Positions 8,963 to 37,770 of a stretch of DNA of 64,000 nt are shown one piece after another (the first letter of the stretch is position 1; each line of letters starts with the position of its first letter). The DNA comes from Planctomycetota bacterium. Lineage in GTDB: Bacteria > Planctomycetota > JAJSAM01. The translations under genes were made by a program, and so were the position numbers. A model generated the notes under the pieces. It had not been told where the DNA came from. It saw nothing but the letters and a program-made list of their open reading frames with translations, and searched no databases. Where the stretch lies: the NCBI GenBank assembly GCA_024274785.1, contig JAJSAM010000036.1, positions 14,748 to 78,747 of the forward strand, written 5' to 3'.

Positions 8963-10192
8963 TCAATCGCCGGCAGCGACCGCCTCCTTTTCCCGCTGGT
9001 CCACCATCATCCGGTGAGCGCGCTCCGCCCACTCCGCCTCCGGCTCTCGCTTTCTCACCGTCACCGCCACCTTGTAGAGGACGGTCAGAATCAGGGCGCC
9101 GGCGGCGTAGATGGCCAGGCCGATCATGACCTCGATCATCGACGGGGAATAGTGCGGCACCTCGCCGAGCGGAGTCGGGATGAACCCGGTGATGACCATG
9201 CCGAGGCCCTTGTCGATCCACAGCGCAATGAAGACCGCGCCGCACGCCCACGCCAGCAGGTTCTCCCTGCTCCTGAGCTTCGGGGTGAGAAGCAGCACCA
9301 GGGCGATGACCGAGAGGACCGAGGAAGTCCACATCCATGGGACGAGCACGGTGTTGCCCTCGAGTCCGAAGTAGAGGAACTCGAAGTGATGCATGTGCTC
9401 CGGAATACCCGAGTAGGAAGCGGTGAAGACCTCGAGCAGGATGAAGAAGACATTGATGGCCATGGCGTAAGCCACGATCTTGCCGAGCGTCCTGATGGCC
9501 TGCCGCCCCACGTCGTATCCGGTCAGCCGCTTGAGGAGCAGGCAGATCAGGATGAGCAGGGCCGGACCGGCCGCGAACGCCGAGGCCAGGAACCGCGGGG
9601 CCAGAATCGCGGTCATCCAGAAAGGACGCGCCGCGAGGCCGGAGTACAGAAACGCGGTCACGGTATGAATGGAGACCGCCCACGGGATCGAGAGGATCAC
9701 CAGCGGCTTCACCCATCCAGGCGGCCGGATCCCCTTTCTCTCAGCCGAGAACGTCGCGTGTGAAATGAGGACGTTCAGGACCAGGTAGCCGTTCAGGGAT
9801 ACGATATCCCAGAAGATCAGGCTGCTCGGGGAAGGGTGCAACACCGCGTTGAAGATCCGGTCCGGCCGGCCCATGTCCACCACGATGAAGAGAAGGCACA
9901 TGGTCACCGAGGCGATGGCCAGGAACTCCCCCAGCACCGCCATCTTGCCGAAGGCCTTGTAGTTGTGCAGATAGTACGGCAGCACCACCATCACCGCGGA
10001 CGCCGCGACTCCCACCAGGAAAGTGAACTGGGCGATGTAGAAGCCCCAGGGCACGTCCCGCCCGAGTCCGGTAACCGTCAACCCCTCGGAGAGCTGCTTG
10101 AAGTAGCAGAGCTTGCCCACGGCGATCACACCGATCAGGCAGAGAAGCCAGATCCAGTACCGTTTGCTTCCGGTAAGCGCCTTCTCGATCAT
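8963..10192 (-). CDS. dsrP: DsrP, NrfD-family membrane subunit of DsrMKJOP
   Basis: VPWGFYIAQFTFLVGVAASAV, DMGRPDR, AVSIHTVTAFL; last gene of the MKJOP block. Confidence 0.95.
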   Translation of the reverse strand: MIEKALTGSKRYWIWLLCLIGVIAVGKLCYFKQLSEGLTVTGLGRDVPWGFYIAQFTFLVGVAASAVMVVLPYYLHNYKAFGKMAVLGEFLAIASVTMCLLFIVVDMGRPDRIFNAVLHPSPSSLIFWDIVSLNGYLVLNVLISHATFSAERKGIRPPGWVKPLVILSIPWAVSIHTVTAFLYSGLAARPFWMTAILAPRFLASAFAAGPALLILICLLLKRLTGYDVGRQAIRTLGKIVAYAMAINVFFILLEVFTASYSGIPEHMHHFEFLYFGLEGNTVLVPWMWTSSVLSVIALVLLLTPKLRSRENLLAWACGAVFIALWIDKGLGMVITGFIPTPLGEVPHYSPSMIEVMIGLAIYAAGALILTVLYKVAVTVRKREPEAEWAERAHRMMVDQREKEAVAAGD

Positions 10193-10199
10193 GGTTGCC

Positions 10200-11018
10200 T
10201 CATACCAGGTAGAAGACGTGGGGGTTCGTGCCGAGTTCCGGGCGGCGCCGCTGCGAGAGTTCCTCCTCGAGCAGCAGCCGGACCTCCGACTCCGGGTCGT
10301 TCAAATCGCCGAAAATGAGGGCCTCACACTCGCAGGCTTCCACACAGGCGGGCCCCTGGTCCGTACCGAGCCGCTCCGCGCAGAAGTTGCACTTCTCGAC
10401 CACTCCGCGCATCCGCGTCGGGAAATCCGGGTTCGGCGGGCTGTCGACCGGCTCGTTGTCGTCGCCACGCGGCCACGGATCCTTCCAGTTGAAGCTCCGG
10501 GAGCCGTAGGGACAGGCCACGATGCAGTAGCGGCAGCCGATACACCGGTGCATGTCCATGAGGACAATGCCGTCCTCGCGCTGGAACGTCGCCTGCGTCG
10601 GGCAGACCCTGACGCAGGGCGGGTTCTCACAATGGTTGCACATCACCGTGATGGGCAGCTCCTTCAGGCCATGGCGCATGTGCTCCGCCTCCTGGCCGAG
10701 GAAGGCGTGCTTGTATGGTTCCTTCCAGATCCACTTGATCTCCTCCTTTTTGGAATCGATCTCGGGGACGTTATGCGTCTGGTGGCACGCGAGCGAGCAG
10801 GCCATGCAGTCACCCTTCTCCTCGCACTTGCGGGTATCGACGACCATGGCCCAGCGAGGCCCGTCTTCCTTCGTCGACGACCTCGCACTGGCGAGCGCCG
10901 CCAGGATCGGACCACCGCAGCCGATAGCGATCGCCACCGCGCCGCTCGCAGCGAGGAAACCCCGGCGGGAGACATCCTTCTCCACCGCGCCCTCCGCATC
11001 CGGCTTTCGATCTTCCAT
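10200..11018 (-). CDS. dsrO: DsrO, periplasmic Fe-S protein with Tat signal
   Basis: SRRGFL Tat motif; CNHCENPPCVRVCP, CIGCRYCIVACP, KCNFC; start at 11018 after a GGAG SD. Confidence 0.95.
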   Translation of the reverse strand: MEDRKPDAEGAVEKDVSRRGFLAASGAVAIAIGCGGPILAALASARSSTKEDGPRWAMVVDTRKCEEKGDCMACSLACHQTHNVPEIDSKKEEIKWIWKEPYKHAFLGQEAEHMRHGLKELPITVMCNHCENPPCVRVCPTQATFQREDGIVLMDMHRCIGCRYCIVACPYGSRSFNWKDPWPRGDDNEPVDSPPNPDFPTRMRGVVEKCNFCAERLGTDQGPACVEACECEALIFGDLNDPESEVRLLLEEELSQRRRPELGTNPHVFYLV

Positions 11019-11020
11019 GG

Positions 11021-11398
11021 CTACCTCTCCTCCGGGACGACGTGGCACTGCCAGCAGTCCGGCTTGACGTCGGCGTAGGTGTGGCACTTGTGGCAGAACT
11101 TCCGGTAGCTCCCGTGGCAACCGAGGCAGGTCCGGGTGAGACTCTTCTCCCACTCCTTTCCGGCGATGAGCACCGGGCCCCGGTCGTTGTTGCGCACCAC
11201 GTCGTTGCGCCACTCGTTCAGGAGATCCATGTGCCACGCCGTCATGGTCGCCTTGTCCTTGACGCACTCCTTCGCATCCGTGACCGGATCCAGGTTCGGC
11301 GGCGTGAAGTCACCGAAGGCGCCCGTGTACCAGATCGGAAAGAGCACCACGATCAGGAAGATCACGATGCCGGCGATAACCTTGCCCTGGTCATGCAT
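11021..11398 (-). CDS. dsrJ: DsrJ, triheme cytochrome c
   Basis: N-terminal TM; MTAWHMDLLNEWR; CLGCH, CHKCH, CWQCH. Confidence 0.95.
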   Translation of the reverse strand: MHDQGKVIAGIVIFLIVVLFPIWYTGAFGDFTPPNLDPVTDAKECVKDKATMTAWHMDLLNEWRNDVVRNNDRGPVLIAGKEWEKSLTRTCLGCHGSYRKFCHKCHTYADVKPDCWQCHVVPEER

Positions 11399-13040
11399 CG
11401 GACTTCACCTCCTCCTCGGCCTCCCGCTTCTGAAGGTGGGGTATCGGTTCGTTGCGCAGGTCCGTCAGGCGTTCGTTCTGCCCCTTCATCATCAGCGCGT
11501 TGCCCACGAACTCGTGGATCCCGGCCACCTCCACGCCGCCGACCCAGTAGTCGATCAGCGGGGGAAGGACGGCCTTGTCGATCGCGCAGATGCAGGCCAG
11601 CGTGTTGACGCCGTACTCATCCTTCACGTACTTGACGGCGTTCGCCCGCGGCAGCCCTCCGCGCATCCGGGCTTCCATGTTCTCGTCGGAGCCGAGCCCG
11701 GAACCGCCCCCGCAGCAGAAGGTCTGCTCGCGGATCGTGTTCTCCGGCATCTCGATGAAGTTGTTCAGAACCTTCTTCATGATGTAGCGCGGCTCATCGA
11801 GCAGTCCCACCGCCCGCGCCGGATTGCAGGAGTCGTGGAACGTCACCTTCAGGTGGTCGTTTCTGCTCTTGTCGAGGTCGAGCTTGTCGTGGCGGATCAG
11901 GTCGGCGGTAAACTCGGTGATGTGCACCGTGCTCGTGGCCTTCGCGTTCGTGAAGACCGTCCCGGTCACCGGGCTCTTCGGCGTCTCGAGGAAGTCCGCG
12001 GGGCCGTTCATCGTGTCCATGTACTGGTGCAGGACGCGCCACATGTGCCCGCATTCGGCGCCAAGGATCCATTTCACGCCGAGACGTCTGGCCTCGAAGT
12101 AGATCTTGGCGTTCAGGCGCTTCATCATGTCGTGGGACAGGAAGAGCCCGAAGTTGCCGCCCTCCGTAGCGAAGGGGCTGAAGGTGTAGTCGAGCCCGAT
12201 CTCGTGGAAGAGCGCCAGGTAGCCGAGGAAAGTGAAGTAGTGCGGGTTCGCGAAGTAGTCCGCGGACGGCACCACCACCAGCACCTCTGCCCCCTTCCGG
12301 TCGATGGGGACATCCACGTGGACTCCGGTGATGTCCTCCAGGTCCTCGGCCGCGAAGTCGAGGTTGTCCTTGAAGGTGTTCGGCCGGACGCCCAGATGGT
12401 TGCCGGTGCGATAGCAGTTCGCCGCGGGTTCCATGATCCAGCCGATGTTGATGCCGACCAGGTTCAGCAGTTCCCGGCCGATCATCGTGACATCGGCGGT
12501 GTCGATACCGTAGGGGCAGAACACGGAACAGCGACGGCACTCCGTGCACTGGTAGAAGTAGTAGTACCACTCCTTCAGCACATCGATGGTCAGGTCGCGC
12601 GCGCCGGCCAGTTTCCCGAACATCCGGCCGGCTTTTGTGAAGTACCGCTTGTAGACGCTGCGCAGCAACTCGGCCCGGAGCACCGGCATGTTCTTCGGAT
12701 CGCCGGTGCCGAGGTAGAAATGACACTTGTCGGCGCAGGCGCCGCAGCGAACGCAGATGTCCATGAAGAGCCGGAAAGAACGGTACTTCTCGAGCCGCTC
12801 CTTCATCCCGTCGAGAATGATCCGCTGCCAGTTCTCCGGCAGGTTCCAGTCCTCGTTCTGGGGCGCCCAGTCGTGAGCGTTCGGCTGTCCGAGGTATTCG
12901 GGGTGCTTCGCATCCGAGGCGTAGCACCAGTTCCCACGACGGTTCGGAATGTCGACCCCGGTGTCCATCCAGGTCTTCGCCGGGGGAGCGTATTCGACCC
13001 TGGACAGTTCCTCTCTGGTGGGAGTCGGGTCTTCAGCCAT
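11391..13040 (-). CDS. dsrK: DsrK, HdrD-like Fe-S/CCG subunit
   Basis: CVRCGACADKCH, CTECRRCSVFCP, HDSCNPAR, TFCCGGG, CAIDK. Confidence 0.97.
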   Translation of the reverse strand: MAEDPTPTREELSRVEYAPPAKTWMDTGVDIPNRRGNWCYASDAKHPEYLGQPNAHDWAPQNEDWNLPENWQRIILDGMKERLEKYRSFRLFMDICVRCGACADKCHFYLGTGDPKNMPVLRAELLRSVYKRYFTKAGRMFGKLAGARDLTIDVLKEWYYYFYQCTECRRCSVFCPYGIDTADVTMIGRELLNLVGINIGWIMEPAANCYRTGNHLGVRPNTFKDNLDFAAEDLEDITGVHVDVPIDRKGAEVLVVVPSADYFANPHYFTFLGYLALFHEIGLDYTFSPFATEGGNFGLFLSHDMMKRLNAKIYFEARRLGVKWILGAECGHMWRVLHQYMDTMNGPADFLETPKSPVTGTVFTNAKATSTVHITEFTADLIRHDKLDLDKSRNDHLKVTFHDSCNPARAVGLLDEPRYIMKKVLNNFIEMPENTIREQTFCCGGGSGLGSDENMEARMRGGLPRANAVKYVKDEYGVNTLACICAIDKAVLPPLIDYWVGGVEVAGIHEFVGNALMMKGQNERLTDLRNEPIPHLQKREAEEEVKSDA

Positions 13041-13042
13041 GT

Positions 13043-14038
13043 CTAGTCCCTCTCCAGCTTGTAGCCGGCTTCCGCGATCTCCTCTTTGAACTCTTCCTTC
13101 CAGTGCTCGAACTCGTGGACCTGGACCGGCTGCGGGTTCGGGTTCACGTGGCGCACCGCGCGGTTGTTGTTCGCGAGGTTCCGGGTCGGGCTCATGAAGA
13201 CGCCGCCGAGATGCATCAGCTTGCTCAGGGGGAAATAGGCGATGAGGGCCGTCACCAGCAGCAGGTGCGCGTAGAACAGCCCCGAGAGCCCGAGTTCACC
13301 GAGGTTCGGGGGGCTGAAACCGAGCAGCCCCATCCCGAGCTCCTTCACCCCCGCGACGTCCGTCTTCGCGAAGTGGCGCAGGAGGACACCGGTCGAGGCG
13401 ATCCCGAAGATCAGGAACAGCGGGAAGTAGTCTGCGGCCTGCGAGATGTAGCGCACCTGCGGATCCAGAAACCGGCGGCCAATCAGCCACGACAGCGACA
13501 CCAGCAGGAGGACGCTGGTCGCAAAGAGTGCGGGAAGTCCAACGTCGAAGAAGCTGTCCACCCACTCCACCCCGGTGACCAGGGCCGGCACCGGCTCGGT
13601 GAAGAAGCGCAGGTGGCGAATGAAAATGATCAGGAAGGACCAGTGGAAGATCATCCCGAACAGCCAAAGCGCCTTGTCGGCGCCGTAGACCAGTCTGGGA
13701 CCGCCCTTCAACTCCGCCTTCGTGTTGCGGAAGAGCGACCGGAAAAACAGGACCTCGAGCGCCATGCGCAGGACGACCTGGCGCCTGGTGTACGGGCTCT
13801 CGAGCGGCTGGTGTTTGATCCACTCGAGCGACTTCGCCTGTCCCGCAACAGTGGGGATGCGAAAGGGCACGGGGGACTTCGCCCACTTGACGATACGGAG
13901 GACGAAGCCGACGAGGAAGGTCAGGATGGCGGCATAGGGCAGCACCACTCCGAACAGGACCTCCAGCCCGGCACCGGCCCCCAGAAAGGCGATCACTACG
14001 ATGGAGAGGACCGCCAACAACGAAACCAGGGCATTCAT
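13043..14038 (-). CDS. dsrM: DsrM, membrane diheme cytochrome b
   Basis: VPFRIPTVAGQ, EVLFFRSLFRNT, FHWSF..RHLR, FPLSKLMHLGGVFMSPTRN. Confidence 0.97.
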   Translation of the reverse strand: MNALVSLLAVLSIVVIAFLGAGAGLEVLFGVVLPYAAILTFLVGFVLRIVKWAKSPVPFRIPTVAGQAKSLEWIKHQPLESPYTRRQVVLRMALEVLFFRSLFRNTKAELKGGPRLVYGADKALWLFGMIFHWSFLIIFIRHLRFFTEPVPALVTGVEWVDSFFDVGLPALFATSVLLLVSLSWLIGRRFLDPQVRYISQAADYFPLFLIFGIASTGVLLRHFAKTDVAGVKELGMGLLGFSPPNLGELGLSGLFYAHLLLVTALIAYFPLSKLMHLGGVFMSPTRNLANNNRAVRHVNPNPQPVQVHEFEHWKEEFKEEIAEAGYKLERD

Positions 14039-14577
14039 CAGGGTTCACCTCGGTTCATGCCGGATTCCCTTTCCGGCCCCTCCTCCCAGAGGAGACCGGC
14101 TCGTTCCATCAGCTTGTAGCTGCGATCACGCATGCTCCGGACCCGAAGCGCGAAAATCTGCTCCCGGCACCGGACGTAGATGTCGAAGGAGAGGTACAGG
14201 AGTTCGTCGATCGCCCGGTCGAGTTCGGCCTGGTCGTTTCCGCAAGAGACGAGCTCACCGACCTCCTCCCGGATCACGTTCTTCAACTCGGGAATGAAGG
14301 CCAGCGCCTGTGACGGCGGCAGGCCCTGGACCGCGCGGAGGTGGATCAGGTCATCGATGCGGCGTTCGAGCTCCTCACGGGAGGCGCCGGAGAACAACGC
14401 CTCGGTCACGCGAGAGGCACCGGTCCGGAAGGTGGCCCCCATCGGGTTCATCAGGGGATCCCTGCTGGTTGCGAGGAAACCCTGCCCCGCATGAGGGAGG
14501 GTCGCCATCATCCGCTTCTGCCAGGCGGCGGCGATGGCCTCCCGGCGAGCGTGGAGATGTGCCAGGAGCTCACTCAT
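14038..14577 (-). CDS. dsrT: DsrT (RsbRD N-terminal domain protein)
   Basis: DPLMNPMG, IHLRAVQ, FDIYVRCREQIFALRV; immediately upstream of dsrM. Confidence 0.88.
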   Translation of the reverse strand: MSELLAHLHARREAIAAAWQKRMMATLPHAGQGFLATSRDPLMNPMGATFRTGASRVTEALFSGASREELERRIDDLIHLRAVQGLPPSQALAFIPELKNVIREEVGELVSCGNDQAELDRAIDELLYLSFDIYVRCREQIFALRVRSMRDRSYKLMERAGLLWEEGPERESGMNRGEP

Positions 14578-16325
14578 CCCGAAATGCCGAGGGACGCCAG
14601 CTCGAGGTCCGCGAAGTAGAGCTTCACCGCTCTCGCCAGCGCCTCGGGGCTGGTGCCGTTCGGGACCAGGCTCGGCGGGAGTCCGATCCGGGTCAGCCGC
14701 CGGCAGGTTCCCGGTCCGATCCCACCGACCAGCATCCCGCGCTCGCGGATCTGGCTGATGAGCCCGTTCTCGACGGCGGACTTCACCGTCGTCTCGCTGG
14801 AGAAGAGGACAATGTCCGCGGGTGGCACCTCCGTCACGCGCGGGTAGCGAATCGTGTAGAGGTTGACGCGAACGACCTCCGCGGCGTGCGGCAAGAGGGA
14901 TTCACGGACGTGGTCGGGCGCGACCTCGGAGGCGGGGATCAAGACCCGCTTTCCGGTGAGTCCAAGAGAAACCAGCGATGAGCTCAGAGCAGCGCGGGTC
15001 GGCTCGGGCGGGATAAGGTCGGGCTCGATTCCGCGTGCCCTGAGCTTTTCTATCGCAGGTTTCCCGATCGCCGCCACCCTCGGCAGCCAGCGGGAGTCGA
15101 GACCCCACTCCGAGAGAAGGTCGAAGAAGGTATCGGGAGACTTTTTCGAGGTGAAGAGCACCCAGTCGTATGGCCGTGAAAAGACAGCGCCACCGTCGAC
15201 GGGGAGCAACTCGGGCTCGATCAGGGGAACCTCGATACAGGTGGCGCCGAGTTCTTCGAGCCGCTCCCGGTGAGTACCGGCCGTCTCCGCCTCAGCGGGC
15301 AGCCAGACGCGGTGCCCCGCCAGCGGCAGGTGGTCGGGCGTGTGGAACTGGGCTCCCACCAGCACCACCGCGGGGGTGTGGATCTCTTCGCGATCGGCGA
15401 TGTCGACGATCGACTCGATCGTGCCCGTCACTGCCCGGGCGAGGGGTGAGCCCAGCTTCTCGACCACCACCACGGGGGTGGTTGCAGGGTAGCCCGCTCC
15501 CCTGAGGTCGGCCATGCGGGCCGGCAGCACCTTGCGGCTCATGTAGAGCGCGATGGCGGGGGCGCCGCCCTTCAGGGGGAAGGGATTCTTGCCGCCGCCG
15601 GCGAGCCGGCCAGTGGAGAAGATGATCTCCTGGGCGACCTCGCGGACGGTCAGGGGCTGGCCGATGAAGGCTGCGGCGCCCGAAGCGGAGCCGACCCCGG
15701 GAAGAACCCGGAAGGAAAGGCCGAGGGTGCGAAGCTCGTCGGTCTCCTCTTCCAGCCGGCCGAACACACAGGGGTCGCCGCCCTTGACGCGGACCACACG
15801 GCGGCCGAGCCGGGCCTCGTTGACCAGGTGCCGGTTGATGTCACCCTGCTTCGTGGAGGGTGCGCCGCAGCGCTTGCCCACCGGAATGACCATCGCGCCG
15901 GGCTTCCGGTTCTTCAACACTTCCTCCCCGCAAAGACAATCCGCGAGGATCACGTCGGCCGCTGCGATGGCGCGGGCGGCCCCAACGGTCATCATGCCCT
16001 CTCCACCCGGGCCGGCGCCGGTGAGGATCACCGGAGGCAGGTAGAATCGGCGCAGCGTCCGGAAGAGGTCGCTCTTCTCGCGAAAGAGGATGGCGACCTT
16101 TCCAGCGGGCTGATCATCGGGGAAGACGAAGTAGTCGATGCCCCCGGGCAGGTTCGAAGGCAACGCCTCGACCGGGATCGCCACGGCCCGGACGGCCGGA
16201 TCCTCGAGATCATCGACGCTCTCGGCGAAAGAAACGGAAAGCCCCGGGAAGTCGCGATCGATAAGGGCTTTCGCTTCCGCCCCCGGCGACCTCCTGGCCC
16301 TTCCGGTCCGGCGCATCTCAACCAT
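14574..16325 (-). CDS. cobA: Uroporphyrinogen-III C-methyltransferase/synthase fusion (CobA-HemD) with a ~100-aa N-terminal extension
   Basis: ILTGAGPG, KGGDPCVFGR, VLPGVGS; HemD part DWVLFTS, VAAIG. Confidence 0.88.
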   Translation of the reverse strand: MVEMRRTGRARRSPGAEAKALIDRDFPGLSVSFAESVDDLEDPAVRAVAIPVEALPSNLPGGIDYFVFPDDQPAGKVAILFREKSDLFRTLRRFYLPPVILTGAGPGGEGMMTVGAARAIAAADVILADCLCGEEVLKNRKPGAMVIPVGKRCGAPSTKQGDINRHLVNEARLGRRVVRVKGGDPCVFGRLEEETDELRTLGLSFRVLPGVGSASGAAAFIGQPLTVREVAQEIIFSTGRLAGGGKNPFPLKGGAPAIALYMSRKVLPARMADLRGAGYPATTPVVVVEKLGSPLARAVTGTIESIVDIADREEIHTPAVVLVGAQFHTPDHLPLAGHRVWLPAEAETAGTHRERLEELGATCIEVPLIEPELLPVDGGAVFSRPYDWVLFTSKKSPDTFFDLLSEWGLDSRWLPRVAAIGKPAIEKLRARGIEPDLIPPEPTRAALSSSLVSLGLTGKRVLIPASEVAPDHVRESLLPHAAEVVRVNLYTIRYPRVTEVPPADIVLFSSETTVKSAVENGLISQIRERGMLVGGIGPGTCRRLTRIGLPPSLVPNGTSPEALARAVKLYFADLELASLGISG

Positions 16326-17742: not shown

Positions 17743-17771
17743 GCTATCCCGCCACAGGACTGTTCAGGTGA

Positions 17772-26753: not shown

Positions 26754-26755
26754 GA

Positions 26756-28369: not shown

Positions 28370-29494
28370 TCACTGCGGAGCCCCGGCCTTCTCCCGTCCG
28401 GTGTAGTGGGCGTGCACGAGCGCCACCGAGCGGTAGACCAGATGCGCGATCTTCGACCACGGCGCGTAGCCCAGCAGACAGAAGACGCAGACCAGGTGGA
28501 TGAAGTAGACGCCGAAAGCCACCGTCTGGATGTCCAGCATGCGGAACGCTTCGACCATGACGCCGGTGACGCCCGTCAGGAGCAGCGAATACATGAAGAA
28601 CCAGTCGTACCAGGTGCCCTTCGTCTGACGCTCGGGGCGGGTCAGGCGATACTTCACCAGGAGGATCGTGCCGATCACCAGGCCGAGAGCGCCGAGGTTC
28701 AGCATCAGCTTCAGCGGGTGGAAGAAGGGCAGCGGCAGGTCGAGCATCCCGAACATGAACCCGATGCCCACGATCGAACCGCCGATGAAGATCAGCGAGA
28801 AACCGTAGAACATCAACATGTGGCCGAGCGCCCGCGACTCGCCGGCTTCACACTGCCTGAACTTCGCGTGCGAGACAATGTCGCTTGCGGCCGCTGCTAC
28901 CGCGCTGATGAAGTTCGCGCCCGCCGGGGCGGGATGCGCCTTCATCAGTGACTTCCAGTAGTTGAATGCACCGATCGCAAAGATCAGGCTGCCGACCATG
29001 GTCATGACGCCGAGCAGCGGTTCCAGAATGCCCGGCGGAAAGATCCCATCGAAGTAGCTGGTCTCGCCGTGCCTGTCCCCGAAGAGCAGGAAGATCAGCG
29101 TCCAGAGCACCACCGGCACCGCGATCAACACCGGCAGGTACTTCGGACTCTCGAGGAGCTTCTGCACGCCCCCCATCGGAGTGTACTCCCGGATCGCCTC
29201 TTTGCGGACGGCGGCGAGCACGTCACCCGGACGGGCGCCGCGCGGACACAGGATCGAGCAGTCGGTACAACCGAAGCAGAGCCAGATGTCCGGGTCGTTG
29301 ATCAACTCCTCTTTCTGTCCCCACTGGGCCAGGATCATCTCCTTGCGGGGGAAAGGACGGTCCTTCGGGGAGAGTTCGCAAGCCACGGAGCAGTTCGCGC
29401 ACTGCATGCACTGCTTCACCGTATCCCCGCCGGACTGAACGATGCGCCGAACGAAGTCGAGGTCGGATCGGATCACCTTCCGGTCTTCCGCCAT
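28370..29494 (-). CDS. qmoC: QmoC, membrane heme b / Fe-S subunit
   Basis: CMQCANCSVAC, IWLCFGCTDCSILCPRGA, GHMLMFYGF, PWSKIAHLVYR. Confidence 0.95.
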   Translation of the reverse strand: MAEDRKVIRSDLDFVRRIVQSGGDTVKQCMQCANCSVACELSPKDRPFPRKEMILAQWGQKEELINDPDIWLCFGCTDCSILCPRGARPGDVLAAVRKEAIREYTPMGGVQKLLESPKYLPVLIAVPVVLWTLIFLLFGDRHGETSYFDGIFPPGILEPLLGVMTMVGSLIFAIGAFNYWKSLMKAHPAPAGANFISAVAAAASDIVSHAKFRQCEAGESRALGHMLMFYGFSLIFIGGSIVGIGFMFGMLDLPLPFFHPLKLMLNLGALGLVIGTILLVKYRLTRPERQTKGTWYDWFFMYSLLLTGVTGVMVEAFRMLDIQTVAFGVYFIHLVCVFCLLGYAPWSKIAHLVYRSVALVHAHYTGREKAGAPQ

Positions 29495-29535
29495 GGTCGT
29501 CTCCTGAGCCTGCAATTCTCACCGGGGAGCGCAGG

Positions 29536-31773
29536 CTAAAAGCCCTTGAAGGGGTTCATGCCGATCTCTTCGATCTCCCCGGCGAACTCGTTGATGATCT
29601 CCGGAAGCCGGTCGAATTCGTCGATGGAGAGCTCTTCGATGCGCACGCGCTCCGTTTCGAGTGCAAGCTGCGTCAGCTTCTCCTTGATGTTGCTGCTGCG
29701 CGTGCCCATCAACTCGCTGCCCTTGATGTAGTGGCACTGATAGTCGTCGCCGGACTTGCAGCCGATGAGGAGGATGCCGTCGAAACCGGACGACAGCGCG
29801 TCGGCGATCCAGACGACGTTCACCGATCCGAGACAGCGCACCGGGATCACCCGGATCCACGGCGACATCCGCGTCTTGAGGGCTGCGGCCCGATCAAAGG
29901 CGGGATACGCGTCGTTTTCGCAGAAGAACGCGAGCAGCCGCGGCTTCTCATCGAACTCGTCGGGGATATCGATCGCCTTCAGCATCGAAGAGACGATGTC
30001 AATCGAGTAGTCCTTGAAACTGACGATCCGCTCCGGGCAGGCGCCGAGACAGATACCGCAACGGCGGCAGCGGGTGGGCATCAGTTCCGGCGTGCCCCTG
30101 GCGTCCTCGTTCAACGTTCCAAAGGGGCACTCCTCCGTGCACCGCTTGCACTGGGTGCAACGCTGCAGGAAGAAGTCCGGGAAGGACTGATCGCCCCACC
30201 GCGGGTGGACCGAGTAGCCCTCCTTCAACAGGTTCGTGGCCTGGATGGTCTTCAGCACCGCGCCCTGCGCGTCTTCCTCGGCGGTGAGGGTGTCGCTCGG
30301 AGCCCGCATGCAGCCGGCGGCGTAGATACCGGTGCGCCTCGTCTCGAACGGGAAGCAGATGAAATGGGAGTCCGGGAAGCCGTACTTCAGCGCCGGAAGG
30401 TCCGGTCCCTGGCGATAGTTCAGGTTCAGGATCTCGGTGCCTTCATGATGGCCGAACTCTTCGACGGTCTGGTTGGCCATCTCGACCTGCACCGGAGAAT
30501 CGTTCTTCGCGATGATCGCCCTGGCTTCGCCTACTTTCCGGATGGCTTCGCCGTCGGCGGCGTCCGGGACCATGCCGGTGGCGAGCACCACCAGGTCCGC
30601 GGGCACTTCGATCTTCTCGCCGAGAAGAGTGTTCTCGGCCAGGACCTTGAGACCACCGTTCACCGTAACGCCGGTGACATCACCCTTGTTGAAGAAGACG
30701 CCCTCGTCCTCCTGAACGCGCTTATAGAACTCCTCCCACTGGGCGGGAGCGCGCATGTCCTTGTAGAGGATGATCGCCTTCGCGTCCGGGTCCATTTCCC
30801 GAACGTAGAGCGCCTGCTTGAGGGAAACCCGACAGCAGACCGCGGAGCAATACGGCAGGTGCTCCTGGTCACGAGAGCCGGCGCACTGGATGAAAACGAC
30901 CTCTCGTGGCGGCTTGCCGTCGGAGGGCCTGAGGATGGCCTCGTTCTTCGCCATCTCCTCGAACTCAACGTTGGTGATGACGTCCGGGGAGAGGCCGTAG
31001 CCCAGGTGCTCGAGCTTCGTGGCATCATAGGGCTTCCAGCCGGTGGCCTGCACGACCGCGCCCACGCGGAATGCCACTTCGCCCGAGGGGGTTTCGAGCT
31101 TCACGTCGAACTGTCCGGGCTGGCCGTCGATCGAGGTGATCTTCGTTCCGGTGTGGACCGTGATCAGATCGGATGACCTCACCGTCTCGATGAGCCTGAT
31201 GATCACCGGCTCCTCGAGTTCCCGGTACGGGGGCTTCGTCGGGAACTGCTTGTGGTTCTTGAGCAACCGGCCGCCGATCTCGTCGGCCTTCTCCACCAGG
31301 ATGACCTCGCGACCCGCCGCCGCCGCTTCCGCCGCCGCGGTCAGGCCGGTGCAGCCGCCGCCCACCACCAGGATACCGTCGGCGATCTCCTCGTCGAACG
31401 GCTGGGGTACGTCGTACTTCTGCGCCTGGACCATGCCCATGCGCATGTAGTCGTTGGCCAGCATCTGCGTGTCTTCCTCGCCGGCGGGCTGGCACCAGGC
31501 CACGCCTTCGCGGAGGCTGACCCGGGACACGAACCGGTCGGGAATGGTGAAGACGTCGCATTTCTCGCGGTGGCTGCACGCGCAGAGGACGGCCTTGCCG
31601 CCGCCGGCGAGTGCCGCCGCGAGAAGAGCCACACCCTCTTCGCCGCAAAGGGCGGGGTGGATCCTCGGCTTTACCTGGTACTCCGATTGGACCAGCTCAC
31701 CGAGCGCATCAACGTCGATGGCGTCGCCGATGCCGCAACCCGAGCAGATGAAAACGTGGATGTCGTCGCTCAT
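29536..31773 (-). CDS. qmoB: QmoB (HdrA-like FAD/Fe-S protein with C-terminal MvhD/FlpD domain)
   Basis: VFICSGCGIG, CAGSRD..HLPYCSAVCC, CTQCKRCTEECP, FFCENDAYPA, RCLGS, CHYIKGS; start at 31773 after SD. Confidence 0.95.
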   Translation of the reverse strand: MSDDIHVFICSGCGIGDAIDVDALGELVQSEYQVKPRIHPALCGEEGVALLAAALAGGGKAVLCACSHREKCDVFTIPDRFVSRVSLREGVAWCQPAGEEDTQMLANDYMRMGMVQAQKYDVPQPFDEEIADGILVVGGGCTGLTAAAEAAAAGREVILVEKADEIGGRLLKNHKQFPTKPPYRELEEPVIIRLIETVRSSDLITVHTGTKITSIDGQPGQFDVKLETPSGEVAFRVGAVVQATGWKPYDATKLEHLGYGLSPDVITNVEFEEMAKNEAILRPSDGKPPREVVFIQCAGSRDQEHLPYCSAVCCRVSLKQALYVREMDPDAKAIILYKDMRAPAQWEEFYKRVQEDEGVFFNKGDVTGVTVNGGLKVLAENTLLGEKIEVPADLVVLATGMVPDAADGEAIRKVGEARAIIAKNDSPVQVEMANQTVEEFGHHEGTEILNLNYRQGPDLPALKYGFPDSHFICFPFETRRTGIYAAGCMRAPSDTLTAEEDAQGAVLKTIQATNLLKEGYSVHPRWGDQSFPDFFLQRCTQCKRCTEECPFGTLNEDARGTPELMPTRCRRCGICLGACPERIVSFKDYSIDIVSSMLKAIDIPDEFDEKPRLLAFFCENDAYPAFDRAAALKTRMSPWIRVIPVRCLGSVNVVWIADALSSGFDGILLIGCKSGDDYQCHYIKGSELMGTRSSNIKEKLTQLALETERVRIEELSIDEFDRLPEIINEFAGEIEEIGMNPFKGF

Positions 31774-31777
31774 GGGA

Positions 31778-33055
31778 TCAACCTCGCCTCGCAATCTGGT
31801 GGGCCTTGAGGACGGCACCGGTGGCGTCCTTCACGCAAGCGGAGACTTCCGCGGGGCGCTTGGCGCACCCGGTCGCGAAAACTCCGGGAGCTGCGGAAGA
31901 AGAGTTGCCGACCATGAAGCCCTGCTCGTCGGTCAGCCACCCAGATGGGAACCCCGCGTCCTTCGCCTCGGGGTCGAGGCCCACCGCCAGCACCGCCAGG
32001 TCGGCGGTGAACTCGACTTTCTGACCGGAGAGCGTGTCCTCGGCGTGGAGGATCACCGCGCCATCGGCCCCCTCGGTGATCTTCGCCACGCGCCCCTTCA
32101 CGAACGTCGCGCGCTCGTTGTTCTCGAGTTCCTGGAGGAAGTCCTCCAGCCGGCCCGGGGCGCGGCGATCGATGTAGAAATGCCGGACCGTCGCATCCTC
32201 GCTGGCCTGCAGCACGTAGTTCGCCTGTTTGAAGCTCGCCAGACAACAGACCGCGGAGCAGTGCGCGAGGTGCAATTCGTCCCGGGAACCGGCGCAGTGC
32301 ACAAAGGCCACCACCTTCGGCGCCTGGTGGTCGCTCGGGCGCAGGATCTTGCCCCCGGTGGGACCATCGACCGCCGCCAGGCGCTCCATCTCCACGTTCG
32401 TAATGACGTTCTTGAACTTCCCGTAGCCCAGTTCTTCGAGCTTGTTCGCGTCGTAGGGCTTCCACCCGGTGGCGACGATCAGGGAGGAGACGGTGATGGT
32501 CTCCGTTTCGACCTTCCCGCCGAAGTCGATCGCGTCGACCTTGCAGACGTCACGGCACTTTCCGCAGGAGTCACGGTCACAGTGATCGAAGTCGATCGCG
32601 TGGCGGGCCGGGAACGCCGCGCCGTAGGGCAGGTAGATGGCCTTCGTCTCATCCATACCGTAGTTGAAGTCGTTCGGCCGCTCCTTCGGGCACGCCTCGA
32701 CACACTCGCCGCAGTTGGTGCAGTTGGCGTTCACTCCGCGGGGTGTCTTCTCGAGCTCGACCTCGAACTTGCCGGGACCGCCCGCAACACCCACCACCTC
32801 GGTCTGGGTGAGGAGATGGACCCTGGGGGTGGTCCGAAGTCTCTTGAGATGGATCTCCACGCCACAGGTCGGCGGGCAGAGCTTCGGGAAGTACTTGTTC
32901 AGTTGCACGACTCGCCCGCCGAGATAGGCGTTTCGCTCCACGAGGTACACCTCGTGGCCCGCCTCCGACGCCTCGACCGCGGCGGAAAGACCGGAGATCC
33001 CTCCGCCGATGACGAGAATGGGCGCGCCGACGTTGTCCGTCGTCGTAGCTGTCAC
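31778..33055 (-). CDS. qmoA: QmoA (HdrA-like)
   Basis: ILVIGGGISG, KYFPKLCPPTCG, CAGSRDE..CSAVCCLAS. Confidence 0.95.
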   Translation of the reverse strand: MTATTTDNVGAPILVIGGGISGLSAAVEASEAGHEVYLVERNAYLGGRVVQLNKYFPKLCPPTCGVEIHLKRLRTTPRVHLLTQTEVVGVAGGPGKFEVELEKTPRGVNANCTNCGECVEACPKERPNDFNYGMDETKAIYLPYGAAFPARHAIDFDHCDRDSCGKCRDVCKVDAIDFGGKVETETITVSSLIVATGWKPYDANKLEELGYGKFKNVITNVEMERLAAVDGPTGGKILRPSDHQAPKVVAFVHCAGSRDELHLAHCSAVCCLASFKQANYVLQASEDATVRHFYIDRRAPGRLEDFLQELENNERATFVKGRVAKITEGADGAVILHAEDTLSGQKVEFTADLAVLAVGLDPEAKDAGFPSGWLTDEQGFMVGNSSSAAPGVFATGCAKRPAEVSACVKDATGAVLKAHQIARRG

Positions 33056-33903
33056 TGTGCAGGCTCCTGGACCGCGTCGTTGTTGATGGCCTCAGCCTTG
33101 ATGGTCTCTGCCTTCAACTCCATGGTCGGCTTCCCGAACAGGCTGAACCGGAGGAACCGGAAGCCGAACTCCATGAGTGCTTCGTCGTCAGACTGGAGCC
33201 GCTCCTGCTCATCCCCGGACACCTCGAATCGTTCGAGAAAAGTGCTCGAGAAGATGAAGCGGCGGAAGGTGTCGAGCTCGTAGGTCCCCATGTAGAACAT
33301 CTGCATCTGCTGGGGAGTGAGCTCCTTTTCGGTCGTGAGGTAGTCGTCGACCGCGAGTTGACGGTACTTCTCGCCCCACTCGTCGTACTCCTCGATGCCC
33401 TGCCCCGAGATCCACTCCCCCACCTTCCGGCTGGTGGATTCGGCGAAGCCCCGGCAACCATCCTCTTCCATCAGGAACCAGAACTCCTCCTCACGACCTT
33501 CCGCTTCCCCGGCCTTGGCGTAACCGAGGGGATACATGCGGCAGGCCCAGGGACGATCTTCGTAGACCTGGCAACCGCCCTTCTCGAGATCCAGGAACGG
33601 GCAGGATTTCTGCTCGTTGTCCCCCATGCGGATCAAGGGAGCCGGCAGCCTCTGCTCCTTCGCGAACGGCAGGACCGTCAGTTGATCGAGGAACTCCTCG
33701 GAAGTGAGGCCCAGGCGATTCTTCAGGCGGAGGACGTCATAGGGGGTGAGGACGATGTTCACATCGCCACAGCAGTCTCCGAAACAGGAGACGCCGGGAT
33801 GGCAGCCAAATGCGAAGCTATCCTCCCGTGTGAGCCGAGGGGCCTCGTCGAGGACCTTCTTTTCGAACTCGGACCTCGCCTTGACGGCTTCTTCGTCGGA
33901 CAT
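33052..33903 (-). CDS. YkgJ-family cysteine-cluster protein
   Basis: FGCHPGVSCFGDCC..LTPYD; CPFL..GCQVYEDRPWACRMYP; SD GGAGG before ATG 33903. Confidence 0.85.
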   Translation of the reverse strand: MSDEEAVKARSEFEKKVLDEAPRLTREDSFAFGCHPGVSCFGDCCGDVNIVLTPYDVLRLKNRLGLTSEEFLDQLTVLPFAKEQRLPAPLIRMGDNEQKSCPFLDLEKGGCQVYEDRPWACRMYPLGYAKAGEAEGREEEFWFLMEEDGCRGFAESTSRKVGEWISGQGIEEYDEWGEKYRQLAVDDYLTTEKELTPQQMQMFYMGTYELDTFRRFIFSSTFLERFEVSGDEQERLQSDDEALMEFGFRFLRFSLFGKPTMELKAETIKAEAINNDAVQEPAQ

Positions 33904-34128: not shown

Positions 34129-36015
34129 CTACTCGAAGATGCGGTGGATCGGCTTCTTCGACATCTCCCACTCACCCGTTCCCGGGTTCCAGCGAGAGTT
34201 CACGAATACCTTCCACTCTTCCTCGTTCATCGTGGGGCAGTCCGAACGGAAGTAGTATCCGGGCCAGCGCGTCTCCTCGCGGTAGAGCATGGTCCGGACG
34301 TGTACCTCGGCCTGCCAGGTACGGTGCACGTTCTCCCAGCAGCGCAGGAGTTCGTGCAGGTCTTCCGCTCCGAGGTGCTCGAGGTCTTCCCTGAGCATCG
34401 CCAGAAGCTCAAGGGCCTTCTCGAGGTTCTCTTTGCTGGTGGTGAAGTTGGTCGAAACGCCACCCGCGTACTCGTCCATGATCTTCTGCAGACGGAACAT
34501 GGCCATCTTCGGACGCAGGTAGTTCGGGTTGATGTCGGGGTCGGTGGAGGCGTTCTTGTGCTGCTCGAAGAGGTCGAGCGGAGCAAGAATCTTCTCTTCC
34601 ATGGCCTTGACGGCGGCCATGTCGACCTGCGGCTCCTCGGGGTGCTCGATGACGTACTTGAGAGCAGCCTGCGCCGCGATCCGGCCCTCGGTGAAGGAAC
34701 CGGAGGAGAACTTGTGACTCGAAGCGCCGGATGCGTCGCCGACGCAGAAGATACCGGGCACGGTCGCCATGTTGGCGTAGCCCCAGAAGTAGTCGTTCTT
34801 CGACGCGTCGTTCTGGAGGTCGGCCGGACCGGAGACCCAGGCGCCGGAAGCACCGGAGTGCGAGCCGATGAAGTAGGGCTCACAGGCGGCGATCTCGGAG
34901 GGCTTCTCTTCGGGGGCCGTGTTGGTGGACGCCCACAGGAGAGCCTGCGAGATGGTCATGTCGAGGAAGTCTTCCCAGGCCTCTGCCTCGAGTTCCTTGA
35001 GCTTCTTCTTCCGCTCCTTCGGATCCTCGGTGGCCTCGGAGATGTTCTTGATGGCTTCGGCCGTCTGCATGTAGATCGGGCCCTTGCCGTCCATCACATC
35101 GAGCATCATGAGCCAGTTACGCAGGTTGGCCGGAACCGGCTTGACCTTGCCGTACTCGCCCCACTTCTGCAGCTCTTCGGCGTTGGTCTGCATGTAGTTC
35201 TCGCCGAGAGCGTTGGTCGCACGCGACTTGAACAACAGGAACCAGGCGCCGACCGGGCCGTAGGCGTCCTTGAAGCGGACCGGAATGAACCGGACCTCCT
35301 GGCAGGTCATCTCACAGCCGGCACGCAGTGAGAAGTAGGTGCTGGCGCCGGAGTTGAATGGCGGGTACCAGGAGCGGCCGAGGCCTTCACCGACGGAGCG
35401 GGGCTTGAACACGTGCACCGCGCCGCCCATCGCAACCATGACCGCCTTCGCCCTGAAGACGTAGAACTTGTTTTCACGGATCGAGAAGCCCACGGCGCCG
35501 GCGATCTTGTCGCCGTCCATGATCGGCTCGGTGATGAAAACACGCTCGTAGATGTTGTCGATCCCGAGGGCGTTCTTGGCGGTCTCGGCGACGAGTACCT
35601 TGTAGGACTCACCGTTGATCATGAGCTGCCAACGACCCTCGTGAACGTATCCACCTTCCCCGTCCTGCCAGATGGGAAGGCCCCACTTCTCGAACAGGTG
35701 GACGGTCCCGTCGACGTGGCGCGCAATGCTGGCGACCAGGTCCTCGCGGGTGATGCCCATGAGGTCGTTGCGGACGTACGCAACGTAGTCCTGCATGGTG
35801 TTCTGGCCGTCCTTCAGGCCGACGTACTGGTTGATGGCGGAGAGGCCCATCGCCACCGCGCCGGACCGGTCCATTGCAGCCTTGTCGACCACGGTGACTT
35901 TCAGGCCGTGCTTCCTGGCCCAGTGGGCGGCCTCGACGGCTGCGCCACAGGCGGCCATGCCGCCACCGCAGATCAGGAGGTCGGTCTGGACCTCAACGGT
36001 TTCAAAATTCGGCAT
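34129..36015 (-). CDS. aprA: Adenylylsulfate reductase alpha subunit
   Basis: DRSGAVAMGLSAIN, WQLMINGESYK, RFKDAYGPVGAWFL, HKFSSGSFTEGR, ETRWPGYY. Confidence 0.98.
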   Translation of the reverse strand: MPNFETVEVQTDLLICGGGMAACGAAVEAAHWARKHGLKVTVVDKAAMDRSGAVAMGLSAINQYVGLKDGQNTMQDYVAYVRNDLMGITREDLVASIARHVDGTVHLFEKWGLPIWQDGEGGYVHEGRWQLMINGESYKVLVAETAKNALGIDNIYERVFITEPIMDGDKIAGAVGFSIRENKFYVFRAKAVMVAMGGAVHVFKPRSVGEGLGRSWYPPFNSGASTYFSLRAGCEMTCQEVRFIPVRFKDAYGPVGAWFLLFKSRATNALGENYMQTNAEELQKWGEYGKVKPVPANLRNWLMMLDVMDGKGPIYMQTAEAIKNISEATEDPKERKKKLKELEAEAWEDFLDMTISQALLWASTNTAPEEKPSEIAACEPYFIGSHSGASGAWVSGPADLQNDASKNDYFWGYANMATVPGIFCVGDASGASSHKFSSGSFTEGRIAAQAALKYVIEHPEEPQVDMAAVKAMEEKILAPLDLFEQHKNASTDPDINPNYLRPKMAMFRLQKIMDEYAGGVSTNFTTSKENLEKALELLAMLREDLEHLGAEDLHELLRCWENVHRTWQAEVHVRTMLYREETRWPGYYFRSDCPTMNEEEWKVFVNSRWNPGTGEWEMSKKPIHRIFE

Positions 36016-36027
36016 CGCTGGCTCCTT

Positions 36028-36465
36028 CTAGCCCCCGAGGGTGAACAGGTCCGTGCCAATGCAATCGGGCTCGTTGAACAGGATTTCATCGTTGATGTCG
36101 CCATCGAACGTGTACCCCGCCGCCGGGTCCGCCTGCCCTTCCGGAGTCGTCCGGATCGGGAACTTGAAACGCTTCAGCATGCCATTGCGGAACTTCACGG
36201 TCCACATGATCGAGTCGGTGCTCCGCATCGGAGAGACCGTCGCGCCCATGGGGCAGAAGTCTGCGTAACCGCGAACCTCGATCGCCTGAGTCGGGCAGAT
36301 CTTTACACAGGAGTAGCACTCCCAACACATGTCCGGTTCGAGGTTGAACGCCTTCATCGTCTCTTTGTCGAGAGTCATCAGGTCGTTCGGGCAGATGTAC
36401 TGGCAGGCCGTCTTGTCGAGGGCCTTGCAGCCATCGCACTTCTCAGGATTAACGAAGCTCGGCAT
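36028..36465 (-). CDS. aprB: Adenylylsulfate reductase beta subunit
   Basis: MPSFVNPEKCDGCKALDKTACQYICPNDLM, CWECYSCVKICP, RFKFPIRTTPEG. Confidence 0.98.
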   Translation of the reverse strand: MPSFVNPEKCDGCKALDKTACQYICPNDLMTLDKETMKAFNLEPDMCWECYSCVKICPTQAIEVRGYADFCPMGATVSPMRSTDSIMWTVKFRNGMLKRFKFPIRTTPEGQADPAAGYTFDGDINDEILFNEPDCIGTDLFTLGG

Positions 36466-36555
36466 CCCTCACACTGCTCCTTCTGCGCTCTCCCGGGGGG
36501 CGCAATCCCCATCTTTGCGGTTTCTGGTTATCGCCATACGCCGCGGCGCTTCGGA

Positions 36556-37770
36556 CTAACCTTCGCCCGTGGCGCCGCGGTGCAGCTTGATCTCCACTTT
36601 CTCTTCGAGGTTGCGGTAGTACTCCCGCAGGATCGAAAGGACCTCGGGCTTGCTGAACTCCTTCGGGATCTCCCCACCCTCGGAGAGGGTCTTTCTGAGC
36701 ATCGTGCCGGAGAGCAGCAGGCGGTCTTCCTTGCCGTGCGGGCAGGTCTTCATGGAGGCCATGGACTCGCACTTGTAGCAGTAGAAGGTCCAGTCCATCT
36801 TGAGCGGCTGGAGCTTCAGGGCGCCGTCCGGGATCTTGTTGAAGATCTCGTGGGCGTCGAATGGACCGTAGTAGTCACCGACACCGGCATGGTCGCGACC
36901 CACGATCAGGTGGCTGCAGCCGAAGTTCTGGCGAAACACCGCGTGCAGCAGGGCCTCGCGCGGACCGGCGTAGCGCATCTCCATCGGGTAACCGCCCTGC
37001 ACGACGCGCTCCTCGCGGAAGTAGTTCTTCACGAGAGCGTCGATGCAGTTGACGCGGACCTCGGCCGGAATGTCGCCCGGCTTCAGCGCTCCCACCAGTT
37101 GGTGGATGTAGACGCCGTCACAGACTTCGACCGCCACCCAGGCCAGGTAGGCGTGCGATGCATGCATCGGATTCCTGAGCTGAAGAGCGGCAACCGTCGA
37201 CCAGCCACGCTCCTCGAATATGGCGCGGGCCTCTTCGGGGCGCTGGTAGATCCCGAACTTCTCGGGGTAGTCGCTTTCGGAGATGACCTTGACCGGACCG
37301 CCGAGATTCACATCGCCCTGCTCCATGACTTTCTGGACGCCGGGGTGCTCGGGGTCGGTGGTTGTGAAGACGTGCTCGCACTCGAAGTTCTTGTCGATCG
37401 AGTACTTGTCCTCGACCTTCATCGTCCCCATGATCTCGTCGGTTTCACCATCGACGAGAGCGACCTCGGTCCCGACCGCGATCGAGTCCGCGGTGGCCTG
37501 GTCGGTGGAGAGGGTGATCGGGATCGGCCAGAAGACGCCGTTCGTCAGCACCATCGGCTCACAGGCGCCCTTCCAGTCCGCCTCACCCATGAATCCGGTG
37601 AGCGGCGTGAAGGCGCCGATACCGAGCATGATGAGGTCCGAGGTCTCCCTCGTCGTCATCCTGACCTTCTGCATCGTTCTGGCGCGCTCGAGCTCCGCCG
37701 CCCGCTCCCCTTCCGGGAGCAAAAGGGGCATCAGCCTGTCCGAGCCATGGGGTGGAACCAGCTTTGCCAT
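36556..37770 (-). CDS. sat: Sulfate adenylyltransferase (dissimilatory ATP sulfurylase)
   Basis: KLVPPHG, QLRNPMHxxH, [25 protein letters not shown]. Confidence 0.97.

Follow-up and report, generated by a model that had tools for sequence, protein, structure and literature searches.

Gene content of the sulfate-reduction span

We analysed a 64-kb window of contig JAJSAM010000036.1 (assembly GCA_024274785.1), in which positions 8963–37770 hold sat, aprBA, qmoABC, dsrAB, a DsrD-like gene, dsrN, dsrL, dsrC, dsrT and dsrMKJOP, all on the minus strand and within ~29 kb. Open reading frames (ORFs) supported by GC content at third codon positions (GC3) in this 65% GC window were scanned against NCBIfam and Pfam, and the hidden Markov model (HMM) matches bear out an earlier note on this DNA, made from the sequence alone, that had placed all of these genes here. 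The outer gene boundaries coincide exactly with the span, no coding space is left unassigned inside it, and the sulfate-reduction gene set is complete and contiguous. Sat, AprA, AprB, QmoC, DsrA, DsrB and DsrM/K/J/O/P all exceed curated equivalog cut-offs, with E values as low as 1e-271, and chance can be set aside as a source of these identifications. Judged by this content, the span likely encodes the full machinery of dissimilatory sulfate reduction in an uncultured Planctomycetota bacterium.

In the direction of transcription, the order is sat-aprB-aprA-YkgJ type-qmoA-B-C, a histidine kinase (HK) and response regulator (RR) pair on the plus strand, and then dsrA-B-D-N-155-aa ORF-L-C-SirC/HemA-CobA/HemD-T-M-K-J-O-P. 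The string dsrABCDN given in the earlier note thus named genes that are present but misplaced dsrC, the real order being dsrA-B-D-N-(155-aa ORF)-L-C. The minus-strand genes appear to form two transcription units, sat-aprBA-ykgJ-qmoABC and dsrABD-N-(155-aa ORF)-L-C-sirohaem-T-MKJOP.

The first unit opens with sat (36556–37770, minus strand, as are all genes below unless stated), encoding a sulfate adenylyltransferase of 404 aa (NF003166, 504 bits against a cut-off of 387; Pfam ATP-sulfurylase and PUA_2). The beta and alpha subunits of adenosine 5'-phosphosulfate (APS) reductase follow as aprB (36028–36465; TIGR02060, 223 bits against 136) and aprA (34129–36015; TIGR02061, 901 bits against 642). 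The qmoABC genes lie near aprBA, with the YkgJ-type gene between. QmoA (31778–33055) is an HdrA-like flavoprotein identified by HdrA-family matches (353 bits) and by its position in the aprBA-qmo string, with 48–52% identity to the products of genes at the qmoA position in related loci. QmoB (29536–31818) combines HdrA-like and ferredoxin regions with an MvhD-like C-terminus (HdrA2 and VhuD matches, and position), and qmoC (28370–29515) encodes the membrane subunit (NF038018 equivalog, 387 bits against 300).

The second unit begins with dsrA (23465–24658; TIGR02064, 591 bits against 393) and dsrB (22341–23429; TIGR02066, 483 bits against 342). Beyond the DsrD-like gene lies dsrN (20392–21858), a predicted sirohaem amidase homologous to cobyrinate a,c-diamide synthase (NF002204, 425 bits, and position). 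DsrC (17822–18145; TIGR03342 and PF04358) ends in ...GACKLAGLPKPTGCV, a C-x10-C-V terminus that keeps both catalytic cysteines. The dsrT gene (14038–14577; Pfam RsbRD_N, E = 3e-11) sits directly upstream of dsrM, a placement described before (PMC6018805). The unit closes with dsrMKJOP (8963–14038: M 13043–14038, K 11391–13040, J 11021–11398, O 10200–11018 and P 8963–10192), all five matching their equivalogs; DsrJ has three CxxCH haem motifs, and DsrO bears a Tat-like SRRGFL signal if its start is taken at 11018. No scanned ORF of the window matches DsrE, DsrF or DsrH, as the earlier note had also stated.

Pathway roles are taken here from established family knowledge and read onto the gene identities, order, motifs, relatives and synteny observed in the window; what we infer is which way the pathway runs, how it is regulated, which cofactor DsrL is specific for and to which phylum the host belongs. 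Sat would convert sulfate to APS, which AprBA would reduce to sulfite with electrons from the membrane complex QmoABC. DsrAB, with DsrC as co-substrate, would then turn sulfite into a DsrC trisulfide, and DsrMKJOP would reduce the trisulfide to sulfide in a reaction coupled to the quinone pool. The divergent DsrD-like protein would act as an allosteric activator of DsrAB, DsrL-2 would pass electrons from NADPH to DsrAB, and DsrN together with two fused sirohaem-synthesis genes would supply the (amidated) sirohaem cofactor.

The first half of this scheme would fall away if sat and aprBA were assimilatory or inactive and the cluster served only sulfite or organosulfonate respiration. No sulfate transporter or permease was seen in the 64-kb window, which weighs against sulfate reduction, and some organisms with DsrAB and DsrL-2 do not reduce sulfate; Desulfurella, for example, reduces sulfur and thiosulfate (PMC7596348). 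Against this, sat, aprBA and qmoABC show no damage, are packed together like a single operon and score above the cut-offs of dissimilatory equivalogs, and the sat-aprBA-qmo arrangement is kept in relatives. We regard a sulfite- or organosulfonate-only role as very improbable.

DsrAB is nearer to reductive-type than to oxidative references

By phmmer, DsrA scores 557 bits against the solved reductive DsrA of Archaeoglobus, 510 against that of Desulfovibrio vulgaris and 493–507 against others; its score against DsrA of the Planctomycetota metagenome-assembled genome (MAG) MAG063 is 796 bits. Against oxidative rdsrA the score falls to 346 bits (41.7% identity), the oxidative reference being a single sequence, the SUP05 phage Lau218 gene annotated rdsrA. 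In a neighbour-joining tree rooted on rdsrA as the one oxidative outgroup, window DsrA is sister to MAG063 DsrA within a Zixibacteria/Ignavibacteria/Phycisphaerales group, and rdsrA stands alone on a long branch. DsrAB of these groups and of Acidobacteriota belong to the reductive bacterial-type branch (PMC10591310, PMC6018805, PMC6018796). By these comparisons, window DsrAB lies much closer to the reductive references than to the oxidative one, in agreement with the reductive type proposed earlier.

DsrL carries the hallmarks of DsrL-2

The dsrL gene (18178–19905) encodes an Fe-S flavoprotein (NF009410, 606 bits; Fer4_20, Pyr_redox_2 and C-terminal Fer4_21) whose architecture runs from an N-terminal region for two [4Fe-4S] clusters through FAD and NAD(P) domains to a ferredoxin with two clusters at the C-terminus. 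Its Fe-S cysteines lie at residues 49/53/97/101/105/109 in the N-terminal region and 512–528/550–562 in the C-terminal one. Loffler et al. (2020, PMC7596348) take as the defining mark of DsrL-2 a YRR motif that corresponds to Y310-R311-R312 of Thermotoga NfnB, and Y306-R307-R308 of the window protein falls exactly on these residues in a phmmer alignment to 4ylf_B. Relative to NfnB or NfnI, the NAD(P) domain lacks the ~32-aa insertion of DsrL-1A. The length of 575 aa and the YRR signature had been read correctly in the earlier note. Identity to DsrL of Zixibacteria, Acidobacteriota and other loci is 50–67%, and the Zixibacteria and Acidobacteriota proteins have been assigned to DsrL-2 in the literature.

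The biochemically characterised DsrL-2 of Desulfurella amilsii, which is strictly NADP(H)-dependent and NADPH-specific (Loffler et al. 2020, PMC7596348), resembles the window protein by description: it is short, has YRR at the NfnB-equivalent position and accompanies reductive-type DsrAB. Motif, length and relatives together support a DsrL-2 type for the window protein, for which NADP(H) specificity is predicted. Residues 1–45 form an N-terminal extension of low complexity, rich in Lys and Ser (…GKKKKKLGSLRSSGSSGS…), to which the sequences of relatives do not align, and tblastn coverage begins at about residue 35; the extension is either a miscalled start codon or a lineage-specific tail.

A divergent DsrD-like protein follows DsrB

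Three base pairs after dsrB lies a gene (22080–22337) for an 85-aa protein, and a DsrD-like gene is kept directly after dsrB in 71 related loci. The earlier note called it DsrD outright, and direct searches do not recover that name. A Pfam scan of the protein gives no DsrD (PF08679) match at E ≤ 0.01, and PDB searches with the single sequence and with two profiles give no match to the D. vulgaris DsrD structure 1UCR at E ≤ 10. Profile alignment to 1UCR with hhalign is non-significant (E = 0.38 for an alignment of 39 close homologues, 0.022 for one of 59 diverse homologues), and a Foldseek search with the AlphaFold2 (AF2) model returns generic winged-helix domains, with 1UCR outside the top 50. 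Each of these results counts against membership in the DsrD family, the D. vulgaris protein being too divergent from the 85-aa protein for direct detection.

The case for the family is transitive. Among 1.84 billion representative proteins, phmmer finds 59 relatives of the 85-aa protein, four of which match PF08679 (best E = 5.3e-6). One intermediate, P0179, reaches the window protein at E = 2.6e-7 in the whole library and 1UCR at E = 7.9e-4 when fewer than 100 sequences were searched, and a second intermediate, P0211, joins the two as well. Both hhalign alignments are in the expected register, and the single-sequence AF2 model (predicted local distance difference test score, pLDDT, 74) is a winged helix of three helices and a hairpin (H-H-H-hairpin). 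We therefore treat the protein as a putative divergent member of the DsrD family, because relatives are recognised by Pfam DsrD and intermediates reach 1UCR, with gene position and fold in agreement; it is the weakest label in the cluster. Surveys from 2018–2023 gave homologues of the protein the same DsrD label, and a biochemical assay exists for allosteric activation of DsrAB by DsrD (Ferreira et al. 2022, PMC8794893).

Reduction as the most likely direction

Reduction is the most likely direction of the pathway, given the company that DsrA, DsrD-like protein and DsrL keep. Several points weigh against it. Sequence alone cannot fix direction, and according to Loffler et al. (2020, PMC7596348) an organism with DsrL-2 may be a reducer, an oxidiser or one that switches between the two. 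A 'reductive' gene set serves sulfide oxidation in Desulfurivibrio and in cable bacteria (cited in PMC7596348, PMC6018805 and PMC6018796), and oxidative-type DsrMKJOP occurs in some lineages beside reductive DsrAB and DsrD (Neukirchen et al. 2023). A PDB search with DsrK for typing DsrMKJOP as reductive or oxidative found no relatives.

These observations would fit a gene set that runs mainly in reverse or in disproportionation, from sulfide, sulfur or thiosulfate to sulfate, with DsrL-2 reducing NADP+; the first DsrL proteins known were, moreover, those of sulfur oxidisers, and DsrL-2 itself occurs in some established oxidisers (PMC7596348). Window DsrA, however, stands at a great distance from oxidative rdsrA, the gene after dsrB is of the putative DsrD family, and neither dsrEFH nor sox, sqr or fcc genes were seen among the scanned ORFs of the window. 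DsrL-2C together with DsrD beside reductive DsrAB has been proposed as an indicator of the reductive direction (Diao et al. 2023, PMC10591310). On balance, oxidative or disproportionating use appears unlikely, and we retain sulfate reduction as the preferred direction.

A widely shared gene arrangement

We compared the cluster with the 80 nearest GTDB loci, which come from about a dozen phyla and whose hosts include Zixibacteria, Ignavibacteria, Gemmatimonadota, Acidobacteriota, Phycisphaerales, Pirellulales and others. Nearly all of those that reach far enough have dsrAB followed by a DsrD-like gene, dsrN, dsrL, dsrC, dsrT and dsrMKJOP, and in many the string sat-aprBA-YkgJ-qmo stands directly upstream of dsrA. 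Reductive DsrAB with DsrD and DsrL-2, as predicted from these sequences, is thus near-universal in this DsrAB clade, and the window cluster belongs to a widely shared, laterally spread sat-apr-qmo-dsr arrangement of this clade, whose members include Zixibacteria, Ignavibacteria, Gemmatimonadota, Acidobacteriota and Planctomycetota.

The closest relative is MAG063 (locus L001, JBDLIY010000001.1), the best and syntenic match when GTDB species representatives are scanned with DsrB. Where its locus extends, it has the same layout as the window, with an RR/HK pair upstream of and divergent from dsrA-B-D-N-155aa-L-C-SirC/HemA-CobA/HemD-T-M-K, and identities of 87% for DsrA, 81% for DsrB, 85% for DsrC, 77% for the DsrD-like protein and 67% for DsrL. 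It represents another species or genus (RR 73%, HK 51% identity) and differs from the window in having HmcF/DsrK-like and receiver genes beside the regulators at the place of the window's qmoC, with apr/qmo not adjacent.

After MAG063, the nearest DsrAB (73–80%) are those of Zixibacteria, Ignavibacteria and Kapabacteria (Anantharaman et al. 2018; 'Ca. Thermonerobacter thiotrophicus', PMC6338057), which share the dsrABD-N-L-C-T-MKJOP string with DsrD-like and DsrL genes but belong to other phyla, lack the sirohaem insertion and have another backbone. Peatland Acidobacteriota SbA MAGs ('Ca. Sulfotelmatobacter' and 'Ca. Sulfopaludibacter'; PMC6018796) and the related Acidobacteriota loci L062–L080 likewise cluster sat, aprBA, qmoABC, dsrABDN, dsrL-dsrC, dsrT and dsrMKJOP, with a short DsrL and dsrV/W-type sirohaem genes in the cluster, and two of them, L068 and L070, have the order aprBA-YkgJ-qmoABC-dsrA. 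They differ in phylum, in DsrAB identity (only 65–74%) and in having no HK/sigma-54 RR pair between qmoC and dsrA; the HemA/HemD fusions are a feature of the window.

D. vulgaris shares with the window Sat, AprBA, QmoABC, DsrABD, DsrC, DsrMKJOP, an Hmc/Tmc-type complex and a DVU0259-like regulator. Desulfovibrio sulfate reduction genes are scattered over several loci, and to our knowledge the classical D. vulgaris set includes no DsrL.

Much of this layout is on record. Neukirchen et al. (2023) noted consecutive DsrABDNCTMKJOP clusters, Hausmann et al. (2018, PMC6018796) described the dsrL-dsrC pair and the dsrV/W sirohaem genes, and one table line in Anantharaman et al. (2018, PMC6018805) lists a Planctomycetes genome with dsrABCD; the main text of Diao et al. 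(2023) does not mention Planctomycetota. The novelty implied by the earlier note was therefore overstated, given the 2018 listing and the ubiquity of DsrD with DsrL-2 in the clade. The cluster is a solid new example of a layout already known from many non-classical sulfate reducers discovered in recent years, not a new kind of system.

Its interest lies in the host and in the proteins. Sulfate reduction drives much carbon mineralisation in anoxic sediments, many environmental dsrAB sequences come from uncultured organisms, and Planctomycetota are abundant in sediments, where they are usually regarded as polymer degraders. A long contig that links the complete pathway to a Planctomycetota backbone, at a junction repeated independently, is firmer evidence than binning alone for the trait in this phylum. 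It offers as targets the DsrL-2/DsrD pair for direction, the sigma-54 two-component system for regulation and the YkgJ-type protein for the electron path between AprBA and Qmo. The cluster has value for ecology and supplies proteins to test, but specialists would not find it surprising, and it leaves the current picture of how the pathway works and where it occurs unchanged.

The chromosomal backbone points to a Planctomycetota host

Beyond sat, positions 38530–58323 encode a metallo-beta-lactamase (MBL) hydrolase, a bifunctional nuclease (BFN), NnrD, a HEAT-repeat protein, PurB, a sigma-54 activator, PfkB, a DUF2520 protein and a giant Kelch/Big_5 protein of 2353 aa. Because the 88,641-bp contig carries purB as well as the cluster, the link between cluster and backbone is independent of binning. 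The closest named relatives of PurB are two 'Planctomycetota bacterium' MAGs (69–71% identity), and all matches of at least 68% that carry any name are Planctomycetota. The 1150-aa HEAT-repeat protein has 10 relatives among 5.8 billion proteins, the sole named one from Planctomycetota, and the YkgJ-type protein is 66% identical to a relative with that label. The label stands on four separately deposited NCBI records (P0007, P0018, P0227 and L001). The backbone that the earlier note had called Planctomycetes-Verrucomicrobia-Chlamydiae (PVC)/Planctomycetota-like is borne out in that the closest named relatives of PurB and the one named relative of the HEAT protein come from Planctomycetota-labelled MAGs, as does the nearest GTDB locus, L001.

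The backbone is syntenic in four independent assemblies (L082–L085: GCA_016277765.1, GCA_008633255.1 and two JGI metagenomes). In each, sulfur genes adjoin the MBL gene, and L084 and L085 have sat-aprBA-YkgJ-qmoAB exactly as in the window. That the junction is shared speaks against a chimera and favours vertical descent within the lineage; its fixed place on the chromosome points the same way for the window's own Planctomycetota lineage. A recent island insertion specific to the window genome was considered and rejected, the junction being common to L082–L085.

The phylum call itself depends on submitters' MAG labels, with only the window seen of this genome, and this caveat weighs against it. 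The labels could be wrong, or the contig could be chimeric, with a sulfate-reduction island joined to a backbone that has nothing to do with it: Rfam and tRNA searches for taxonomic markers in the window found no rRNA or tRNA, ribosomal protein genes are likewise missing from the window, and PurB relatives below about 68% identity spread over many phyla. DsrA from Planctomycetota-labelled MAGs (L001, L008, L028, L041, L043 and L045) falls in three separate places of the tree, namely with the window, in a Phycisphaerales pair and inside a Gemmatimonadota group, and dsr itself therefore says little about the host; this scatter suggests several independent lateral acquisitions or some mis-binned contigs. 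Set against a foreign or composite origin are the even GC content along the window (61–69%), the recurrence of the junction sat/aprBA | MBL-BFN-NnrD-HEAT-...-PurB in independent JGI and NCBI assemblies, and the four separate records. A host outside the planctomycetes thus seems quite improbable, and a Planctomycetota host is supported as far as the labels on relatives of the linked genes allow it to be tested.

A search of sequencing runs found distant holders only (6–11% of words), one of them labelled marine sediment metagenome, and the host is most likely from sediment. A tblastn search of DsrA against plasmids gave no match, and the identical DsrA sequence has no record in the assembly index.

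Regulation

Between the two units, and divergent from dsrA, the plus strand encodes a two-component system (25299–28120) of a histidine kinase (25299–26753) and a sigma-54-dependent response regulator (26756–28120), with AtoS/AtoC-like matches. A scan of the whole window for sigma-54 promoters gave a count not enriched over chance. We retained only two boxes, as weak leads, for their counterparts in relatives. The candidate -24/-12 box TGGCGCACCGTTTGCC (37888–37903, minus strand) lies 118 bp upstream of sat and is not significant alone; L084 and L085 have a similar box, TGGCTCAGCGTTTGCC, 107 bp upstream of sat (7333–7348 in L084). The second candidate, TGGCGTACGGTTTGCG (24838–24853, minus strand), is a weak scan hit ~180 bp upstream of dsrA, and its counterpart in MAG063 is TGGCTTGGTGTTTGCG (L001 8587–8602), likewise upstream of dsrA. 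The two window boxes are alike (TGGC-N7-TTTGC), and the counterparts in close relatives stand at matching distances. We infer that both units are probably under the control of the HK/sigma-54 RR pair encoded between them.

Sigma-54 boxes close to the consensus also occur before dsrA in several Acidobacteriota loci. A scan of positions 8500–28450 for sigma-70 promoters and terminators found sites no more numerous than in shuffled sequence.

Additional genes in and beside the cluster

The span also holds genes that the earlier note did not list: the YkgJ-type gene, the HK and sigma-54 RR, the 155-aa ORF and two sirohaem fusions. The first fusion (16318–17742) joins a SirC/DsrV-like precorrin-2 dehydrogenase (TIGR01470, residues 16–161) to glutamyl-tRNA reductase, HemA (TIGR01035, residues 168–449). 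The second (14574–16325) joins a CobA/DsrW-like uroporphyrinogen-III C-methyltransferase (NF004790, 222 bits, residues 99–329) to uroporphyrinogen-III synthase (HemD models, residues 346–568). Of the 80 related loci, MAG063 alone shares these fusions, which sit inside the dsr operon.

Outside the span, on the plus strand at 5–4643, lies an Hmc/Tmc-like transmembrane redox complex, recognised by NCBIfam and Pfam matches that are all below curated cut-offs. It comprises an HmcF/DsrK-like gene cut by the window start, an HmcE/TmcC-like gene, an HmcB-like gene and an HmcC-like gene fused to a C-terminal multihaem cytochrome c domain. Regulators follow on the same strand (4650–6962), namely a receiver, a PAS histidine kinase and a DVU0259-like receiver. 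The complex extends the respiratory region past the span.

The YkgJ-family protein (33052–33900; longest ORF to 34071) is a CxxCxxCC cysteine-cluster protein of ~283 aa (PF03692, E = 1.7e-11) with eight invariant cysteines and 3475 relatives at E ≤ 1e-10. Its gene follows aprA, usually just before qmo, in all 14 fetched loci that include aprA (L008, L028, L034, L037, L047, L055, L057, L062, L067–L070, L075 and L080), as well as in L084 and L085. Foldseek found no PDB fold match for its AF2 model (pLDDT 78), and a literature search found no paper tying YkgJ/PF03692 to aprBA/qmo. One tentative reading, which we put forward as a possibility, joins two proposals. The YkgJ-type protein would be an unrecognised partner of AprBA-Qmo in all sulfate reducers of the DsrL-2 type. 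The window, in turn, would represent a coherent, undescribed family-level lineage of Planctomycetota, probably sediment-dwelling, with its whole sulfate-respiration apparatus (the Hmc/Tmc-like complex, sat-aprBA-qmoABC, the dsr genes, a sirohaem synthesis of its own and regulation by sigma-54) fixed at a single junction of the chromosome and passed on vertically.

The 155-aa ORF (19947–20414) is ferritin/rubrerythrin-like, with a weak Rubrerythrin match (E = 0.007). Its homologues lie between dsrN and dsrL in MAG063 (71% identity) and in many Ignavibacteria and Acidobacteriota loci (35–49%).

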